From IMG/VR virus record IMGVR_UViG_2541047848_000001: 21,826 nucleotides of DNA; one strand, 5' to 3'. The DNA comes from a virus (Duplodnaviria; Heunggongvirae; Uroviricota; Caudoviricetes). How positions within the stretch are numbered: position 1 is the first letter of the stretch; each line of letters opens with the position of its first letter. The position numbers and the translations under genes were made by a program. This document shows positions 840-10,972 of this stretch, in pieces. Under the pieces are notes generated by a model. It was not told the DNA's origin and did not search any database. It worked only from the letters and a program-made list of their open reading frames with translations.

Positions 840-1364
840 TTATTGTTTAACCCATAATAATTCATTGATATTGAATCCCAACTTTTGAGCGGTTCGCACA
901 TAGTCTGCTTTTACTTTATCTGGAATAGTTGGGGTCCTTGCCAGAATCCATAGGTATTCTCTGTTCGGACCACTGACAAGAGCATACTTATACTCATCAT
1001 CCAGTTTGATTACATTATAGCCACCATAGAAGGGGCCAAAAAACGAAACCTTCAATGCTGCAGTTTTAGTATCTCCAGTAAAGTATGCTTTACCTTCGCT
1101 CTCGCTCCATTTATTTTTCGTTGGATCGTATCCACGGTTAAGTACACGAATCCCTCCGTCGTTCCGTTTTCCATAAGTAGCGCTGACCTGTTCCAGACCA
1201 CGTTCGAACCGGTTCTCGAGGCGAGCTATTTCATACCATTTTCCGAGGTAGCGGTTGGCGTCAAAATTTGTAATCGGCTGCACACCTTTAGGTGGTGTCG
1301 GGGCCTTACATGCTATAAGAGTGAAAGAGAGTGCAATGCCAGTCAACACAGGCCATAACTTCAT
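840..1364 (-). CDS. lipocalin-family outer-membrane lipoprotein (Blc-like)
   Basis: 174 aa. Signal peptide with lipobox LIAC. Lipocalin signature NFDANRYLGKWYEIARLENRFERG and ...KVSFFGPFYGGYNVI... closely parallel bacterial lipocalin Blc. AGGA SD upstream of the start on the minus strand. The only convincing minus-strand gene in the window. Confidence 0.8.
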   Translation of the reverse strand: MKLWPVLTGIALSFTLIACKAPTPPKGVQPITNFDANRYLGKWYEIARLENRFERGLEQVSATYGKRNDGGIRVLNRGYDPTKNKWSESEGKAYFTGDTKTAALKVSFFGPFYGGYNVIKLDDEYKYALVSGPNREYLWILARTPTIPDKVKADYVRTAQKLGFNINELLWVKQ

Positions 1365-1556
1365 AATAAATCCTGTACTTTTGATAGTTGAGAGTAAGTA
1401 TGAAAGATAGATGATTACGACCGATCACTTAAAGAACTTTCATACTATATTAGGAATAGTCCATAACAGAAAAATTGTCAGTGATGACGCCAGAAAGGCA
1501 ATTTATTCCGTGCACTACACAGTTTATGTGTTAATGAATTAGTCAAGGGGGAGAAT

Positions 1557-2516
1557 ATGATAAAAAAACCTGTGATTGGAATCAGCGGTTGTTTGGCCGG
1601 TTCTGCTGTTCGTTTTGATGGTGGTCACAAAAGAGCTGACTTTTTAATGGACAAATTAGTGGAATGGGTAACATTCAGACCAGTATGTCCGGAAATGGCT
1701 ATAGGGCTGCCAGTTCCGCGTCCTGCTCTACGTCTTGTGCGCTCGATGCAAGGAAATATACGGATGTGTTTCAGCCACGACCAGAATGAGGATGTGACAG
1801 AGAGAATGACAGAGTTTAGTCGTTCTTATATGGACAAATTAAAGGATGTATCGGGGTTTGTGGTTTGTGCTAAATCTCCCAGCTGTGGCATGGAGCGCGT
1901 GCGTGTCTATGATGAAAATGGTAATCGAGGTCGTAAAGATGGAGTGGGACTATTTACGAGCACTTTGATGGAAAAGTTTTCCTGGCTACCGGTTGAAGAG
2001 GATGGGCGATTACATGATCCAGTGCTTCGTGAGAATTTTGTTGAAAGAGTTTTTGCTTTGCATGAGCTCAATCACCTTTACAAGGAGAAATTATCAAGAA
2101 GAGAGTTATTAGCTTTTCATAGTCGTTATAAGCTTCAGTTGTTGGCGCATAGTCAGGCAGGCTATAAAGATATGGGACCATTTGTGGCTGCAATACACGA
2201 GTGGGCGGACCTTGAATCATACTTTGAGGTGTATCGTGATAAGCTGATGGCGATTCTCAGAAAACCTGCATCACGTAAAAATCACACGAATGTGCTGATG
2301 CATATACAGGGGTATTTTAGTAACTACTTAAGTACACGCCAGCGTAAAGAGTTGAGCGAGGTTATACTTAACTATCGTTCTGGCACATTACCTCTTCTTG
2401 CGCCGTTGACTCTGCTGAAGCATTATCTGGGTGAGTATCCTAATGATTACTTGCTTACACAGAATTACTTCGATCCCTATCCGGACGAACTGGCTCTAAG
2501 ACTGATGGTAAATTAA
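1557..2516 (+). CDS. DUF523/DUF1722 fusion protein (YbgA-like C-terminal domain; TudS-like Cys-containing N-terminal domain)
   Basis: 319 aa. N-terminus MIKKPVIGISGCLAGSAVRFDGG with further Cys at CPEMA and CAKSPSCG, the pattern of DUF523 [4Fe-4S] proteins. C-terminal half resembles YbgA/DUF1722. Strong SD AAGGGGGAG before ATG 1557. Confidence 0.7.
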   Translation: MIKKPVIGISGCLAGSAVRFDGGHKRADFLMDKLVEWVTFRPVCPEMAIGLPVPRPALRLVRSMQGNIRMCFSHDQNEDVTERMTEFSRSYMDKLKDVSGFVVCAKSPSCGMERVRVYDENGNRGRKDGVGLFTSTLMEKFSWLPVEEDGRLHDPVLRENFVERVFALHELNHLYKEKLSRRELLAFHSRYKLQLLAHSQAGYKDMGPFVAAIHEWADLESYFEVYRDKLMAILRKPASRKNHTNVLMHIQGYFSNYLSTRQRKELSEVILNYRSGTLPLLAPLTLLKHYLGEYPNDYLLTQNYFDPYPDELALRLMVN

Positions 2517-2858
2517 TTGTATGCGATATCATCCAAAAGGATGAGTTCCTGCATGCAGGATATTTACAATCGTAAAAACTACACTATGATACCCAGAGTG
2601 TCAGTTTGTATAAAAACTCTGTTTACGCTGAAGAAACAATTGAGATGCAACTTAAAGTTGGTAAACATGCCAGTCAAAATATATAATATTATGATTCCAC
2701 GCAGCTATATATAATATAACAGATTGGTTTAATAATTTGTCTTTGTGAGTTAAATACATAATTTTATACTTGTGATGCAATGAAATTTTCCTTATTGTTG
2801 AACTGGCGAATATTGATTTTCCACCTATACTTACCTGGTGTAACCCCAATGATATCAG

Positions 2859-3599
2859 GTGGATAATATGCCATACATATGTTCTATCATTTTGGTGTTG
2901 AACTCGTTTGATGTCCGAATTGGTAAAGAAGATATTTTGTTTAAAAAAGGAAGTGCTGTTCTCATTGATTACAATTTAAAAGATTTTTTTTCATCAAATA
3001 TAGATCATGTAATGATCGTAGATGTTGAAGAGAAAACAGTTAATGATTTCTTTAAAAGCAACACACTCTCACCTTTTTCTGTAAGAAGGTTTTATCCGGC
3101 ATACTTGATGGTGGAATGTGAAGATTTTTCATTGTTAAAGAACTTGATTGCATGCTTGAATTGTGATGGCAGAACTGTGGATTTTGTTAGAAATCAAATA
3201 TCACTTGCATGTCTTGCTATCTTATCTTCAGAGAAAATAGTGCAAAGTTTTTTATTTGGATGTCTTAATAGTTTAGGAAGTAAAGTTAAGGCTATTATTC
3301 ACACGGATATATCTGCAGCATGGAGACTTTGTGATATATCTTCAAGACTGTATCTGAGTGAAAGTCTGTTAAAAAGAAAATTAAAGCACGAAGGCTTATC
3401 ATTTAGTAAGTTAATTCTTGAAGAGCGAATGGTGATGGCGGAAAGGTTATTAAGCTACAATTTATATTCTGTTGGAAAAGTTGCTGAGATATGCGGTTAT
3501 GAAAACACGTCATATTTTGTAAGTGTTTTCAGAAGGTATTTTGGTGTTCCTCCCCATCAATATTCATCAAGATTTTTTTTAGAAAAAGACATGATGTAA
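2859..3599 (+). CDS. AraC/XylS-family transcriptional regulator, AppY/EnvY-like
   Basis: 246 aa. C-terminal HTH region ...SESLLKRKLKHEGLSFSKLILEERMVMAERLL...GYENTSYFVSVFRRYFGVPPHQY parallels AppY/EnvY. N-terminus M..YICSI...NSFD also AppY-like. Gene and upstream region are strongly AT-rich. Confidence 0.8.
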   Translation: MDNMPYICSIILVLNSFDVRIGKEDILFKKGSAVLIDYNLKDFFSSNIDHVMIVDVEEKTVNDFFKSNTLSPFSVRRFYPAYLMVECEDFSLLKNLIACLNCDGRTVDFVRNQISLACLAILSSEKIVQSFLFGCLNSLGSKVKAIIHTDISAAWRLCDISSRLYLSESLLKRKLKHEGLSFSKLILEERMVMAERLLSYNLYSVGKVAEICGYENTSYFVSVFRRYFGVPPHQYSSRFFLEKDMM

Positions 3600-4960: not shown

Positions 4961-5097
4961 AATCTTAACTACAATATGATTCATTTTGATGATTGTTTCA
5001 TAAGGAACAGTGAAGTAAGATCTAAGAGGAGTTAAATTTTATACAGTATAATCATAATATTGCAGCAAGGTGGTTATAATTGAAAGAATATTTAGAT

Positions 5098-6555
5098 ATG
5101 AATACATCTCATGTAAGAGTTGTTACTCATATGTGTGGGTTCCTGGTTTGGCTCTATAGTCTTTCAATGTTGCCACCAATGGTTGTAGCATTGTTTTATA
5201 AAGAAAAAAGCCTGTTCGTTTTCTTTATAACTTTCGTTATATTTTTTTGCATTGGTGGCGGAGCGTGGTATACAACTAAGAAATCTGGCATTCAATTACG
5301 TACCCGTGATGGGTTTATTATAATTGTAATGTTTTGGATTTTGTTTTCTGTTATTAGTGCATTCCCTTTATGGATTGACTCAGAACTTAATTTAACGTTC
5401 ATTGATGCTCTGTTTGAAGGGGTTTCTGGAATAACAACAACAGGAGCAACTGTAATTGATGATGTTAGTTCATTACCTCGGGCATATTTGTACTATCGGT
5501 CACAGTTAAATTTTATAGGTGGTTTAGGAGTTATTGTTCTGGCGGTTGCTGTATTGCCATTATTGGGTATTGGTGGTACAAAGCTTTATCAGTCAGAAAT
5601 GCCGGGGCCATTTAAGGATGACAAACTCACTCCCCGCCTGGCCGATACGTCACGGACACTGTGGATAACTTATTCTTTATTAGGTATTGCTTGTATTGTC
5701 TGTTATAGACTTGCAGGAATGCCTTTGTTTGATGCTATTTGTCACGGGATTTCCACAGTTTCGCTTGGTGGTTTCTCAACTCATAGCGAGAGTATCGGAT
5801 ATTTTAATAACTATTTGGTTGAGCTGGTGGCTGGTTCTTTTTCCCTGCTATCGGCTTTCAACTTCACTCTTTGGTATATTGTTATTAGCAGGAAAACGAT
5901 AAAACCTTTAATCAGAGATATTGAACTTCGTTTCTTTCTGTTAATAGCCTTAGGGGTGATCATTGTTACCTCTTTCCAGGTCTGGCATATAGGTATGTAT
6001 GACTTGCATGGAAGTTTTATTCATTCGTTTTTTCTTGCCAGCTCCATGCTCACTGATAATGGTTTAGCTACGCAGGATTATGCAAACTGGCCCACGCACA
6101 CGATAGTGTTTTTGCTGTCGTCAAGTTTCTTTGGGGGATGTATAGGTTCAACTTGTGGTGGAATTAAGTCACTTCGATTTCTTATACTTTTCAAACAAAG
6201 CAAACACGAGATAAATCAGCTTTCTCATCCCAGAGCGTTGTTGAGTGTAAATGTAGGAGGGAAGATAGTTACAGATCGTGTAATGAGGTCTGTATGGAGT
6301 TTCTTTTTTCTTTATACTCTCTTCACGGTGTTTTTTATACTGGTGTTAAATGGTATGGGATATGATTTTCTTACATCATTTGCAACAGTGGCTGCATGTA
6401 TTAATAATATGGGATTAGGTTTTGGGGCTACTGCATCGTCATTCGGAGTGCTTAATGACATTGCAAAATATTTAATGTGCATAGCTATGATTCTTGGTCG
6501 CCTTGAAATTTATCCTGTTATTATATTGTTTTCAGGTTTTTTTTGGCGCTCCTAA
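5098..6555 (+). CDS. trkG: Trk-system potassium uptake protein, TrkG/TrkH family
   Basis: Polytopic membrane protein with repeated pore-loop-like GxGG segments. 485 aa from ATG 5098, which is the TrkG length as I recall it. Position right after Rz/Rz1 is the known location of trkG in Rac. AT-rich. An in-frame TTG at 5080 has a better SD (see findings). Confidence 0.85.
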   Translation: MNTSHVRVVTHMCGFLVWLYSLSMLPPMVVALFYKEKSLFVFFITFVIFFCIGGGAWYTTKKSGIQLRTRDGFIIIVMFWILFSVISAFPLWIDSELNLTFIDALFEGVSGITTTGATVIDDVSSLPRAYLYYRSQLNFIGGLGVIVLAVAVLPLLGIGGTKLYQSEMPGPFKDDKLTPRLADTSRTLWITYSLLGIACIVCYRLAGMPLFDAICHGISTVSLGGFSTHSESIGYFNNYLVELVAGSFSLLSAFNFTLWYIVISRKTIKPLIRDIELRFFLLIALGVIIVTSFQVWHIGMYDLHGSFIHSFFLASSMLTDNGLATQDYANWPTHTIVFLLSSSFFGGCIGSTCGGIKSLRFLILFKQSKHEINQLSHPRALLSVNVGGKIVTDRVMRSVWSFFFLYTLFTVFFILVLNGMGYDFLTSFATVAACINNMGLGFGATASSFGVLNDIAKYLMCIAMILGRLEIYPVIILFSGFFWRS

Positions 6556-6692: not shown

Positions 6693-7481
6693 ATGAGCGA
6701 GAAATTAAAGATAGTCTATCGCCCATTACAAGAATTGTCACCGTATGCGCACAACGCCAGGACGCACAGTACTGAGCAGGTGGCACAACTGGTAGAAAGT
6801 ATTAAGCAATTCGGCTGGACTAATCCGGTGCTGATTGACGAAAAGGGCGAAATTATTGCGGGTCACGGTCGTGTTATGGCGGCTGAAATGCTCAAAATGG
6901 ATTCTGTTCCGGTCATTGTTCTGTCTGGCCTGACGGATGAGCAGAAAAAGGCGTACCGCCTGGCAGATAATCGCCTACCGATGAATGCTGGCTGGGATGA
7001 AGATCTGTTGCGGATGGAGCTGTCGGACCTAATCAATGCTGATTTTGATGTCTCCCTGACAGACTTCGGCCCGACAGAAATTGATGAACTGTTGACGGAT
7101 GTTTTGCCCGGTACAGGAAATAAGGAGGAGCCGTATACGACGAAAATTGATACGCCTGTTTATGAGCCGTCGGGCGGTAAACCGGATATCAGTGAACTGT
7201 ACGACGATACGAAAACTCAGGAGCTGATCAGCCGGATACGTTCGGCGTCCCTTGAGCCTGATATTGAGAAATTCCTCCTGTGTGCGGCAGAACGTCACAC
7301 GGTGTTTAATTTCAGCAGAATTGCGGACTATTACGCTCATGCCCCCGCTGAAATTCAGTGCCTTTTCGAGGAGTCGGCGCTGGTGATCATTGATTATCAG
7401 CAGGCTATTGAAAATGGATTTGTCCGAATGACGCAGCGCATGGTGGCGATCATGCATAGCGGGGAGGAGGAATATGCGTGA
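6693..7481 (+). CDS. ParB-like nuclease domain (ParB/sulfiredoxin fold) protein
   Basis: 262 aa. N-terminal ParB signature ...IVYRPLQELSPYAHNARTHSTEQVAQLVESIKQFGWTNPVLIDEKGEIIAGHGRVMAA. Acidic C-terminal half. Stop overlaps the start of the next gene. Confidence 0.8.
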   Translation: MSEKLKIVYRPLQELSPYAHNARTHSTEQVAQLVESIKQFGWTNPVLIDEKGEIIAGHGRVMAAEMLKMDSVPVIVLSGLTDEQKKAYRLADNRLPMNAGWDEDLLRMELSDLINADFDVSLTDFGPTEIDELLTDVLPGTGNKEEPYTTKIDTPVYEPSGGKPDISELYDDTKTQELISRIRSASLEPDIEKFLLCAAERHTVFNFSRIADYYAHAPAEIQCLFEESALVIIDYQQAIENGFVRMTQRMVAIMHSGEEEYA

Positions 7482-8124
7482 TGATTTTTGCGCCTTTATT
7501 CTGACTCACGGGCGACCGGACAAAGTTCTGACTTACCGGACGTTGCGTCGTGCTGGCTATACCGGGAAAATTTTTATCGTTGTTGATGATGAAGATAAGA
7601 CACGGCATCAGTACATGGCTGAATTTGGTGAACAGGTGCTGGTATTTTCCAAAGCAGATATTGCCAGTCGTTTTGACGAAGCCGATAATTTTGGTGACCG
7701 CCGCTCAATTTTTTACGCCCGTAATGCCTGTTTCGACCTGGCAAAACTGGTCGGGTGTAAATACTTCATTCAGCTCGATGATGATTATCACGAGTTCCAG
7801 TTTCGGGTGGATCGCAACTATGACCAGGCCTATTTCCCGATAAGGAAACTGGATGCGATCCTTTCTGAAATGCTGGCGTATTACGAATCAATACCCGCGC
7901 TTTCCATCGCTATGTCGCAGGGCGGGGATTTTCTTGGTGACAATGGCGGCCATGCTTCGTGGGTGAAACGCAAGGCAATGAACAGCTTTATCTGTTCGGT
8001 TGATCGACCGTTCTCATTCATGGGGCGCATTAACGAGGATGTGAATACGTACACGAATCTCGGTCGCCGTGGTGAATTGTTTATGACGATCGGTGCTGTC
8101 CAGTTAGGGCAGAAACAGACGTAG
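7474..8124 (+). CDS. DxD-motif nucleotide-sugar-transferase-like (GT-A fold-like) protein; possibly interrupted by an in-frame TAG
   Basis: ATG 7474 lies inside the ParB-like stop region, with SD GGGGAGGAGGAA just upstream. Motifs AFILTHGRPD...IFIVVDDED...IQLDDDY resemble the N-terminal strand, DD and DxD elements of GT-A/nucleotidyltransferase folds. An ORF in the same frame resumes 15 nt after the TAG (8140..8337). Confidence 0.5.
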   Translation: MRDDFCAFILTHGRPDKVLTYRTLRRAGYTGKIFIVVDDEDKTRHQYMAEFGEQVLVFSKADIASRFDEADNFGDRRSIFYARNACFDLAKLVGCKYFIQLDDDYHEFQFRVDRNYDQAYFPIRKLDAILSEMLAYYESIPALSIAMSQGGDFLGDNGGHASWVKRKAMNSFICSVDRPFSFMGRINEDVNTYTNLGRRGELFMTIGAVQLGQKQT

Positions 8125-8340
8125 AAAAACAGCGGCGGAATGACCGAGCTGTATCTGGATTCCGGGACCTACGTTAAAAGTTTTTATTCCGTCATGTATG
8201 CGCCGTCGTGCGTAAAAATCTCACTGATGGGCGCCAGCCATAAACGCATTCACCATCAGGTCACCTGGAACAACGCTGCAGTAAAAATCCTTCACGAAAA
8301 ATACAGGAAGAAGACACCCTGCATATTAATGGGGTGACAA

Positions 8341-8592
8341 ATGATTCCGTATTCGAAAGTCGAGTCTCTGGCAGCGTGCCGGATGACTGCACAACAAATC
8401 GCTGACGTACTGGATGTTGATCTGAACCGACTGAAAGAAAATCGGGAAGCAATGACAAATTTTTACGCGTCCATCCGTAAGGGCAGAGCGAAAGGTGAAG
8501 CCGAGCTACGGGCGGCATTGTTTAAGCTTGCCAGAAAAGGGGATGCCTTTGCCCTGCGCGAACTACTCAGGGTGGATAAAAATCAGGACTAA
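8341..8592 (+). CDS. small basic, probably DNA-binding protein upstream of the packaging genes (function unknown)
   Basis: 83 aa, MIPYSKVESLAACRMTAQQIADVLDVDLNRL... has an HTH-like segment. Tightly packed before the putative terS. Confidence 0.4.
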   Translation: MIPYSKVESLAACRMTAQQIADVLDVDLNRLKENREAMTNFYASIRKGRAKGEAELRAALFKLARKGDAFALRELLRVDKNQD

Positions 8593-8595
8593 CTG

Positions 8596-9690
8596 ATGAG
8601 CAGACCGGACTGGGGGGCGTTGCAGCAGGAGTATATTGCTGAATACACCCGCTCCGGTATATCTCCGGTGGCATGGTGTGAAGCAAGGGGACTGAATTAC
8701 GCAACAGCCCGTCGTTACATCAAAAAACCTCCGAAAAATGCGCAGACAGAAATGCGCAAAACTGCGCAAAAAAGTGCGCAGAAAAAATCTGCGCAGACTG
8801 CACAAAAGCGGAACGGAAAATCTCAGGAAAAAAAGCCAGTATCCGATGCGTACCTGAATGAGGGCGATGCGGAAGAAATTTCGTTCTGTCCCGATGAATT
8901 CGGCGTTTCTGACCAGCAGGCGAAATTCGCAATGCTGGTTGCCCAGGGGAAAAAACTCGTTGAGGCATATCGCCTGGCAGGATACGAGTCAGAGGGGAAT
9001 GCGGCCTACGTAACCGCCAGCCAGCTCCTAAGAAATCCTAAGGTTTTTCGTGCTATCAGCTACTTCCGCAATCAGTACCAGAAACGCTATACCGCAGACC
9101 TGGATTTACTGGTGAGTCAGTTGATGGCCATTGTCCAGGCCGACCCCAATCAGTTGGCACAATTTCGCCGTGTTAACTGCCGTTATTGCTGGGGCGAGAA
9201 TCATCACTACCAGTGGCGCGATATAGCAGAATTCGATAAGGCAGCGGCGCAGGCCTCCAGAGATGGCAAACCCGAGCCGGAATATGGTGGCCTTGGCTTT
9301 GTTGATAACGCCATACCCAATCCGGACTGCCCGAAGTGCTGCGGTGAGGGAACGGGGCAGCTTTATATGGCTGATACCACTCTGCTTGATGGGGATGCGC
9401 GGCAATTATATGCAGGGGCAAAGCTCGGAAAATTTGGTGTTGAGATCCTGCTGGAGGATAAGGCTGCCGCCCGGCGTGAATTGTTGCGTTTGCTTGCTGC
9501 TGGCGGGGCTTTATGTGCAGATAAGCGGCTACAGGAACTGGAAATTGAACGGCGCAGAATGGAAAACCAGAAGCTGCGCAAAGAGATCGAAACGGTGGAG
9601 GATAATGAACATCCCCAACCTGTTGCGATCAATATTAATGTGGTTGATGCCAGAGTAAGGAGTGATGAAGATGATCTCTCCGACGCTTAA
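8596..9690 (+). CDS. putative terminase small subunit / DNA-packaging recognition protein
   Basis: 364 aa directly upstream of, and overlapping, terL. N-terminal HTH-like segment (GISPVAWCEARGLNYATARRYIKK), basic low-complexity AQK linker, Cys cluster CRYC...CPKCC, C-terminal coiled coil. Assigned by position and architecture only. Confidence 0.5.
   Translation: MSRPDWGALQQEYIAEYTRSGISPVAWCEARGLNYATARRYIKKPPKNAQTEMRKTAQKSAQKKSAQTAQKRNGKSQEKKPVSDAYLNEGDAEEISFCPDEFGVSDQQAKFAMLVAQGKKLVEAYRLAGYESEGNAAYVTASQLLRNPKVFRAISYFRNQYQKRYTADLDLLVSQLMAIVQADPNQLAQFRRVNCRYCWGENHHYQWRDIAEFDKAAAQASRDGKPEPEYGGLGFVDNAIPNPDCPKCCGEGTGQLYMADTTLLDGDARQLYAGAKLGKFGVEILLEDKAAARRELLRLLAAGGALCADKRLQELEIERRRMENQKLRKEIETVEDNEHPQPVAININVVDARVRSDEDDLSDA
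8739..8804 (+). repeat. array of five palindromic TGCGCA hexamers (plus one TGCACA) at 10-15 bp spacing inside the putative terS
   Basis: TGCGCA at 8739, 8753, 8763, 8775, 8790; TGCACA at 8799. Read directly from the sequence. Confidence 0.7.
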
Positions 9691-10972
9691 TGTGCCTCAG
9701 GCGCGATTTCTTTCAATGCCCCACAAATTTAAAGCCTATGTCGCTGGTTTTGGCTCGGGTAAAACATGGATTGGGTGTGGTGGCATATGCAAGGGGATTT
9801 GGGAACATCCTGGTATAAATCAGGGATATTTTGCGCCAACGTATCCCCAAATTCGCGATATTTTTTACCCTACAGTGGAAGAAGTTGCTGCTGACTGGGG
9901 ATTGAATGTAAAAATTAATGAGGGAAATAAAGAGGTTCATTTTTATTACGGACGTCAGTATCGGGGAACCACTATCTGCAGATCGATGGAGAAGCCGCAA
10001 ACGATCGTCGGTTTCAAAATTGGTAATGCGCTGGTGGATGAACTGGACATTTTGCCGAAGGAAAAAGCCAGAACAGCGTGGCGCAAGATAATTGCGCGTA
10101 TGCGTTATAAGGTTGATGGACTTCGCAACGGTATTGACGTTACAACCACGCCGGAAGGATTCAAATTTGTCTACGAGCAGTTTGTTAAAGCCGTGCGTGA
10201 AAAAACAGAGCTGGCCTCACTGTATGGTCTGGTGCAGGCATCTACTTTCGATAATGAAAAGAACCTGCCAGCAGATTACATTCCTTCGCTTCTTGAGTCA
10301 TACCCTCCAGAGCTGATTAAAGCCTATCTTCGAGGACAGTTTACTAACCTGACAAGTGGTACTGTTTACCATCAGTTTGACCGGAAACTGAATAATTGCG
10401 AAGAAGTGGAGCAGCCAGGGGAGCCGATTTATATTGGGATGGATTTTAACGTTGGAAAGATGGCGGGGGTCGTCCATGTACTGCGTTTGGGGCTTCCATG
10501 TGCGGTAACTGAAATCATCAATGCCTACGATACACCGGATATGATCCGCATCATTAAAGAACGCTTCTGGCTGTATGACGGGAATGATTACCGGAAAGTG
10601 AGGGAGATTTATATTTATCCAGATGCTTCCGGAGATTCCAGAAAATCAAGTAACGCAAGTACGACGGATATAGCCCAGCTTAAGCAGGCTGGTTTTAACG
10701 TTGTGGTGAACAGCTCGAACCCGCCAGTAAAAGATCGCGTTAACTCAATGAATGCAATGTTCTGCAATGCCAATGGCGAACGTCGCTATAAAGTTAATGT
10801 GAAGCGTTGTCCGGTATATGCCGAATCTCTGGAGCAACAGGTCTGGGATGATAAGGGGGAGCCTGATAAAAAATCAGGCAACGATCACCCGAATGATGCC
10901 GGAGGCTATTTCATCGTTAAGCAATTCCCTATTATCAAACCGACCGGAAGAGTCACATCACTTCGGATTTAA
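9671..10972 (+). CDS. terminase large subunit
   Basis: Walker A GFGSGKT near the N-terminus. C-terminal nuclease-like acidic motifs (IGMDFN..., YPDASGDS). SD TAAGGAG at 9656-9662 favours ATG 9671. ORF-track start 9662 is an upstream GTG. Confidence 0.9.
   Translation: MISPTLNVPQARFLSMPHKFKAYVAGFGSGKTWIGCGGICKGIWEHPGINQGYFAPTYPQIRDIFYPTVEEVAADWGLNVKINEGNKEVHFYYGRQYRGTTICRSMEKPQTIVGFKIGNALVDELDILPKEKARTAWRKIIARMRYKVDGLRNGIDVTTTPEGFKFVYEQFVKAVREKTELASLYGLVQASTFDNEKNLPADYIPSLLESYPPELIKAYLRGQFTNLTSGTVYHQFDRKLNNCEEVEQPGEPIYIGMDFNVGKMAGVVHVLRLGLPCAVTEIINAYDTPDMIRIIKERFWLYDGNDYRKVREIYIYPDASGDSRKSSNASTTDIAQLKQAGFNVVVNSSNPPVKDRVNSMNAMFCNANGERRYKVNVKRCPVYAESLEQQVWDDKGEPDKKSGNDHPNDAGGYFIVKQFPIIKPTGRVTSLRI

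Follow-up and report, generated by a model that had tools for sequence, protein, structure and literature searches.

A TGCGCA hexamer array in the small terminase gene of a Rac-like lambdoid prophage as a candidate pac site

The terS gene and its hexamer cluster

The virus record IMGVR_UViG_2541047848_000001 (Caudoviricetes) comprises a stretch of 21,826 nucleotides (nt), referred to here as the window, which forms part of a Rac-like lambdoid prophage and lies in its late operon. Its packaging and structural genes are arranged in the order terS, terL, portal, MuF-like gene, scaffold, P22-type coat and tail genes. The 5' part of terS, the gene for the small terminase subunit (TerS), contains five copies of the palindromic hexamer TGCGCA and a degenerate sixth copy, TGCACA (Table below). 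This array is proposed to be the recognition part of the prophage pac site, bound by the N-terminal domain of TerS itself, a reading to which a probability of roughly 0.7 can be assigned. The array is probably where packaging starts because it is conserved as DNA and adjoins a DNA-binding domain related to PacA of phage P1.

TerS matches Pfam Terminase_2 over residues 123–321 (E 1.9e-9) and PHROG 51, “terminase small subunit,” over its full length (E 8.7e-75). Of 5426 complete Escherichia coli genomes, 883 carry the 5' 405 bases of the gene at 90–100% identity and under the annotation terminase small subunit; in the strains FDAARGOS_497 and ET358, for instance, 8596–9000 is matched at 100% identity. 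The features at the locus are as follows, with positions given in the window.

8596..9690, plus strand: terS, small terminase subunit, 364 amino acids (Pfam Terminase_2, PHROG 51)
8596..8730, plus strand: additional N-terminal domain of TerS, residues 1–45, a predicted three-helix helix-turn-helix (HTH) and putative hexamer reader
8731..8895, plus strand: Lys/Gln/Ala/Ser-rich linker-coding segment (about residues 46–100), which contains the array
8739..8744: TGCGCA copy 1, aaT GCG CAg (Asn-Ala-Gln)
8753..8758: TGCGCA copy 2, aTG CGC Aaa (Met-Arg-Lys), out of phase with the other four
8763..8768: TGCGCA copy 3, acT GCG CAa (Thr-Ala-Gln)
8775..8780: TGCGCA copy 4, agT GCG CAg (Ser-Ala-Gln)
8790..8795: TGCGCA copy 5, tcT GCG CAg (Ser-Ala-Gln)
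8799..8804: TGCACA, degenerate sixth copy
8962..9558, plus strand: Terminase_2 core of TerS, residues 123–321 (Pfam match), with a CxxC...CxxC insert at about 9178–9339
9662..10972, plus strand: terL, large terminase subunit (nuclease and ATPase), the presumed cutter (Pfam Terminase_6N, E 5.6e-33; Terminase_6C, E 4e-11)

The six copies span nt 144–209 of terS, and a motif count confirmed the positions given by the first-pass annotation together with the spacing of 10–15 bp (start-to-start distances between the TGCGCA copies of 14, 10, 12, and 15). The TGCACA at 8799 (terS nt 204) is replaced by a full TGCGCA in many close relatives. The rest of the window holds only six isolated copies of the hexamer, the next one within terS lying at 9575, and from the window-wide rate about 5e-7 clusters of at least five TGCGCA in 66 bp would be expected. 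Since the array segment encodes a low-complexity peptide, a fairer null is obtained by holding the peptide PPKNAQTEMRKTAQKSAQKKSAQTAQKR fixed and resampling its synonymous codons according to the codon usage of the window’s own genes; this yields a mean of 0.72 TGCGCA and P(>=5) = 5e-5. The repeats had also been thought to encode an AQK/AQT linker, which applies to the four copies read as x-Ala-Gln and fails for the copy at 8753, read as Met-Arg-Lys. As this copy lies in another codon phase, the repeat is a DNA repeat and not simply a peptide repeat. The linker-coding DNA between 8720 and 8830 additionally contains several A6–A7 runs.

Conservation of the array and its link to the N-terminal domain

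Related loci were gathered by similarity to the TerS core, drawing on IMG/VR and on GTDB with a single genome for each species. The 76 distinct 5' sequences that have the N-terminal domain contain 388 TGCGCA hexamers, between 3 and 9 per gene. These occupy codon phases 3, 2, and 1 in 304, 65, and 19 cases, respectively, and encode 29 different tripeptides; ten different amino acids are seen before the Ala, and changes from Gln to His preserve the hexamer. The TerS of Klebsiella prophages, at about 40% identity, illustrates this pattern with six TGCGCA in the same place, four of which encode T/P-A-Q, one L-R-T, and one K-C-A, so that all three phases are used. Furthermore, TGCGCA encodes 303 of the 326 A-Q or A-H dipeptides in the linker (93%) as opposed to 64 of 248 in TerS outside the linker, and the repeat can be extended to the consensus AAAnTGCGCA(A/G)AA. 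Both the length and the sequence of the linker segment (8731–8895) differ between relatives. Across 33 E. coli-type alleles, codons 49–66 show a synonymous diversity of about 0 at an amino-acid diversity of 0.075–0.08. The cluster is thus conserved as DNA rather than as protein. The first-pass annotation had held that constraints on DNA and protein coincide here, which is not simply the case: the hexamer survives three codon phases as well as amino-acid changes, and constraint on the DNA therefore dominates.

The array is equally specific in its location. Over 117 distinct loci chosen by protein similarity of the TerS core (779 kb in total), the density of TGCGCA is 46-fold higher in terS nt 120–330 (0.024 per base) than elsewhere (0.00052). 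Every one of the 108 clusters of at least three TGCGCA in this set falls in terS nt 100–340, just after the N-terminal domain, and none was found outside that segment. The presumed local enrichment of the hexamer therefore holds within the window (P = 5e-5) and across its relatives. In the reverse direction, a scan of IMG/VR for three TGCGCA with gaps of 3–10 bases returned at least 120 stretches from which 80 loci were listed; among the matches listed, the array is directly adjoined by sequence coding for the N-terminal domain in 58 of the 80 loci, and those lacking it are mostly GC-rich contigs or ordinary tandem repeats. Arrays or related signatures occur in prophages of Klebsiella, Enterobacter, Providencia, Vibrio, and Aeromonas as well as in Shiga toxin (Stx) phages.

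The N-terminal domain was modeled by AlphaFold2 as three helices with a mean predicted local distance difference test score (pLDDT) of 80. Sequence models yielded sub-threshold matches only, to HTH families of the transposase type. A short query of this domain against a large protein database recovered mainly fragments of 45–126 amino acids, and a full-length TerS query recovered close relatives only. Aligned with hhalign, the profile of the domain matches P1 PacA alone with a probability of 91.5% (E 8.4e-7) and a three-member PacA family with 96.7% (E 3.3e-10), over 41 columns and thus essentially its whole length; pairwise BLASTP against PacA is marginal (E 0.003–0.1). The likeness to P1 is more than an analogy, since TerS residues 1–45 and the N-terminus of PacA are homologous.

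The repeat tracks this domain and not the TerS core, in that it changes with the domain and stays constant across bodies. The N-terminal domain and its TGCGCA array are fused to at least four TerS body types, namely Terminase_2 with a Cys-rich insert (as in the window), a short Terminase_2, Sf6_terminase, and the 933W type, on contigs that range in GC content from 0.40 to 0.61 and include Aeromonas and Vibrio phages. TGCGCA is kept even where the HTH region of Terminase_2 has strongly diverged, as between the window and the Klebsiella type. Recognition by the Terminase_2 HTH in the manner of SPP1/SF6 was not borne out, given that TGCGCA is independent of the body and dependent on the N-terminal domain. 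Conversely, variants of the domain with an AKRY helix (Yersinia phages, Klebsiella RothD) are followed by the repeat TGCGAAT, the Stx phages 933W and VT2-Sakai, where the helix reads NTARTRIKM, by four YGATCAT, and the domain of locus L083 by ATCGCGA. Where the same TerS core is preceded by an N-terminal HTH of another class (for example ...AIRKRAKKNGWVR), the repeats are GGTACGCA (L094, L126, L128), GGGGCAAAA (L095, L115), or GGTTCGCA (L124, L125), which lie in several codon phases and partly as inverted copies within the first 330 nt of terS. An HTH domain followed by its own repeat array thus seems to be a general design among TerS genes, and the co-variation suggests that the N-terminal domain is the reader of the hexamers.

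In the Stx phages, the terS genes of VT2-Sakai (L263:1501-2307) and phi345 (L262:1501-2287) encode the homologous N-terminal domain and then at once the four YGATCAT, translated as IDHEIDHKTDHEIDH; about 70 nt 3' of these there are one or two copies of TGCGCA or TGTGCA. The YGATCAT repeat is P1-like because it contains GATC, and the array with its Dam sites is, by analogy, a candidate pac site of 933W-type Stx phages. Another observation concerns the linker, for which databases hold many “proteins” of 66–87 amino acids consisting of the N-terminal domain and a frameshifted linker (P0030–P0115); the loci L067 and L082 are likewise frameshifted there. The linker segment is a frameshift hot spot in assemblies or decaying prophages.

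Proposed function and alternative explanations

According to the proposed mechanism, the HTH of the N-terminal domain would be tethered by a flexible Lys-rich linker whose coding DNA carries five or six of its own binding sites. Several N-terminal domains of a presumed TerS oligomer would bind the clustered hexamers directly on concatemeric phage DNA, and the bound TerS would recruit or position TerL, which may then make the first cut nearby. Headful packaging would proceed from this cut. The Terminase_6N/6C TerL, the portal, and the MuF-like gene would suit a headful packager, and the head set as a whole (Terminase_6N/6C TerL, DUF4055 portal, MuF-like protein, and P22-type coat) is consistent with headful packagers while not being diagnostic of them.

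Several points weigh against the pac site reading. Binding of the hexamers by the N-terminal domain is deduced from co-variation only, and a simple code in which an ARRY helix specifies TGCGCA is insufficient: P1 PacA has the same TARRY helix yet TGATCA repeats, and in contig L143 a TGCGCA array goes with an N-terminal HTH of another class. The synonymous-diversity signal is only partly specific because the low diversity of the 33 E. coli-type alleles extends through all of codons 1–84, and a recently shared 5' module may explain part of it. With respect to P1, an integration host factor (IHF) consensus with at most one mismatch was not found in 8600–9700, a second hexamer cluster is not present in the terS of the window, and TGCGCA does not contain GATC. 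Finally, the closest “phage” records are in silico prophages (the vB_EcoS records are prophage predictions), and close relatives with a virion-derived record were not found.

Among the alternatives, the N-terminal domain might bind the array as an operator for autoregulation of terS and terL, or for replication or recombination, with packaging starting at a separate site. The comparative data indeed reveal a protein-site pair and not what the pair does, and a second pac reader is conceivable, as Terminase_2 has its own DNA-binding HTH in SF6/SPP1-type proteins (PMC4737164). However, the homologous pair of domain and array in P1 is a pac site, the cassette is found solely at the N-terminus of small terminases, in four families, which fits a role in packaging specificity, and no promoter-like site was found in 8100–9100. 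A regulatory function of this kind is therefore unlikely.

Alternatively, the palindromes could act through their structure or another factor, as hairpins or cruciforms, antisense terminators, targets of methylases or restriction enzymes, or sites for a ParB-like protein. On the minus strand, 8739–8806 is predicted to form four intrinsic-terminator-like hairpins, each built from neighboring palindromic hexamers with a T run behind them, compared to 1.3 expected for the whole 1-kb region, the single-stranded DNA fold of the array region reaches a z-score of -4.9, and genes for a ParB_N protein and a glycosyltransferase lie 0.5–1.9 kb upstream. The hairpin and fold signals arise because the palindromes are separated by A runs, and the terminator-like hairpins are probably a by-product of the array. 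They are not a conserved feature, since with other classes of the N-terminal domain this place is occupied by direct repeats that are not palindromes (TGCGAAT, GGTACGCA, GGGGCAAAA). Moreover, the repeat changes with the N-terminal domain of TerS, no Rfam family matches at the array, and the ParB_N and TET-associated glycosyltransferase (TAGT) genes are restricted to the E. coli-like group and absent from the Klebsiella, Enterobacter, Providencia, and Vibrio array loci, all of which renders a structural role very improbable.

Equally slight is the probability that the array is mainly a recombination junction, with short repeats promoting the exchange of terminase modules. The cassette's joints with four types of TerS body, which lie immediately 3' of the array, would fit this explanation, as would the “gpO-terS fusion by deletion” of Rac-SA53 (L002:717-1745), where the deletion end point lies inside the array (the match begins at window position 8748), so that the N-terminal domain is lost and two TGCGCA copies are left. 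Yet mosaic joints are expected beside any portable specificity module, and a junction leaves the 3–9 exact hexamers, their co-variation with the N-terminal domain, and the P1 precedent unexplained. Lastly, replication slippage producing the cluster as a functionless by-product of a low-complexity AQK linker could draw on the four of five copies encoding x-Ala-Gln (with Lys next in two) and on the imperfect repeats of periods 10, 12, and 36 detected in the array region by Tandem Repeats Finder, but it can be given almost no credence, because the amino acids vary while the silent sites do not: the three codon phases with their 29 tripeptides, the resampling result (P = 5e-5), the exact nnT GCG CAn in 93% of linker A-Q/A-H dipeptides, and the persistence of the array in TerS proteins of about 40% identity and with four types of TerS body all disfavor it.

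The proposal of a phased-hexamer pac site inside terS, resembling that of P1, is hence supported by the enrichment of the hexamer, by the homology of the N-terminal domain to P1 PacA, and by the equivalent placement of the hexamers. The more interesting claim goes beyond the array of the window and concerns a portable packaging-specificity cassette, in which a PacA-like HTH of about 45 residues and its own site array in the linker DNA would move jointly between the otherwise unrelated TerS families Terminase_2, Sf6-type, 933W-type, and P1 PacA; the odds on this broader claim are about even.

Further observations concern the remainder of TerS and the surrounding genes. The insert at 9178–9339 within the Terminase_2 core is zinc-ribbon-like and unusual for this family, its four cysteines (CRYCWG ... 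CPxC; C195, C198, C245, and C248) being invariant in the alignment of TerS relatives, and may form a zinc ribbon. Directly 5' of terS, an open reading frame (ORF) of 83 amino acids (8341–8592) has a match (E 2.5e-22) to positions 145–218 of PHROG 309, which is likewise a “terminase small subunit” family, and may be a small accessory protein or what is left of some other terS. Upstream of it, the TET-associated glycosyltransferase gene (Pfam TAGT, PHROG 842) seems to be split into 7474–8124 and 8140–8337, with a 216-amino acid ORF covering profile positions 1–198 and the next ORF of 65 amino acids covering positions 205–259; it is preceded by the ParB_N protein gene (6693–7481). No TET or methylase gene was found in the window. 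A link to DNA modification, considered by analogy to Dam at P1 pac and in view of the glycosyltransferase and ParB_N genes, was rejected, as these genes occur only with the E. coli-like group. The upstream part of the late operon further comprises the Q antiterminator, several cargo genes, holin, lysozyme, Rz, and a TrkH-type transporter. The latter, a TrkH-family potassium transporter gene (5080–6555, 491 amino acids, E 9e-144), lies between the lysis and packaging genes and, from this location and from what it encodes, appears to be a cargo gene. Cargo-like genes also occupy 840–3599, between the Q antiterminator and holin; they encode a lipocalin, on the minus strand, as well as a 2-thiouracil desulfurase/DUF1722 protein and an AraC-family regulator.

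Comparison with known packaging systems

Few pac sites have been defined experimentally, and the binding of TerS to pac is hard to show in vitro (PMC9611059); the pac site of ES18, for instance, is still unknown (PMC11260489). No literature was found which links TGCGCA repeats to terminase or describes a pac site of this prophage family or of 933W-type phages. Terminus data were found neither in a study of enterohaemorrhagic E. coli phages (PMC12502783) nor in a preprint on prophages of carbapenemase-producing E. coli (10.1101/2022.06.29.498070). The LF82 prophage Gally, with a mapped pac peak in terS (PMC9928086), was considered as well and gives no support either way, since its TerS of 140 amino acids belongs to another family. 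If the portable-cassette reading is true, the sequence itself could reveal pac sites and their specificity (TGCGCA, TGCGAAT, YGATCAT, TGATCA, and others) in enterobacterial prophages by the hundreds, Stx phages among them, and the signature would mark pac in the common E. coli prophage family whose terS 5' end was counted above. The start of headful packaging, and with it the start points and direction of lateral transduction of neighboring host genes, could in turn become predictable. The candidate signal of roughly 70 bp would also be compact enough for the design of phagemids and transducing vectors, as previously done with P1 pac, and the natural pairs of domain and site would lend themselves to studying how small terminases read DNA.

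The closest known counterpart is the pac site of P1. In both systems, a cluster of 6-bp repeats lies in the 5' third of the small-subunit gene, just 3' of a homologous HTH-coding segment; the hexamers share the frame TGnnCA, occur in more than one codon phase, and are kept while the linker peptide changes. Accordingly, PacA variants differ in their linker peptides and retain TGATCA arrays. The annotated P1 genome shows TGATCA/G at pacA nt 194–233 and 324–352, flanking the cleavage site (nt 277–283) and an IHF site, and codes the hexamers as nnT GAT CAn (x-Asp-His/Gln), some of them in another phase, for which nnT GCG CAn is the exact counterpart here. The two systems differ in that the central dinucleotide is CG in the window instead of AT, that five or six copies form a single cluster in the window whereas P1 has 4 + 3, known as HEX4 and HEX3, flanking the cleavage region, and that the array begins 3–9 nt after the HTH-coding segment as opposed to about 65 nt in P1. 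Cleavage of P1 pac is reportedly controlled by Dam and requires IHF or HU, according to work by Sternberg, Skorupski and colleagues; at the array of the window, Dam control is impossible because TGCGCA lacks GATC. In P1, the experimentally proven pac site spans 161 bp within pacA and comprises seven hexamers; when these are recoded synonymously, packaging of P1 drops about 9-fold (PMC10028697). Outside the N-terminal domain, TerS of the window is unrelated to PacA by BLASTP, as is TerL to PacB, and they belong to Terminase_2 and Terminase_6N/6C instead. While the cassette is common to P1, the site is therefore not part of the P1-type pacase system, and by comparison the array is best read as a variant of the P1-type pac design with a single cluster, without GATC, and without an IHF consensus.

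Phage lambda offers a second parallel. There, cosB contains several R sites which adjoin the small-terminase gene and are read by the N-terminal winged HTH of gpNu1. Repeated sites and an N-terminal HTH of the small terminase are thus common to cosB/gpNu1 and the proposal made here; the R sites, however, are 16 bp long, lie upstream of the gene, and work with IHF in a cohesive-end (cos) system. The Stx phages 933W and VT2-Sakai are alike in having the homologous N-terminal domain followed by four short repeats in linker-coding DNA, and differ in the repeat (YGATCAT), in the NTARTRIKM helix, and in the type of TerS body. In the SPP1/SF6 type, pac (pacL, pacC, and pacR) is thought to be read via multiple contacts by a ring of HTH motifs (PMC4737164; PMC9611059); multiple contacts of this kind are also supposed here. 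Similarity to the SPP1 pac boxes was not seen, and no search aimed at it was made. G1P belongs to the Terminase_2 family, as does the TerS core of the window; the window TerS has an additional N-terminal HTH which is not present in G1P, and it is this domain that the repeats track. In P22, the pac signal is embedded in the terS coding sequence with the wobble positions carrying the signal (PMC11260489; PMC9611059). The P22 signal is a single asymmetric 22-bp site in gene 3, in contrast to the array of short repeats in the window, and P22 TerS belongs to a different family without the N-terminal domain found here.

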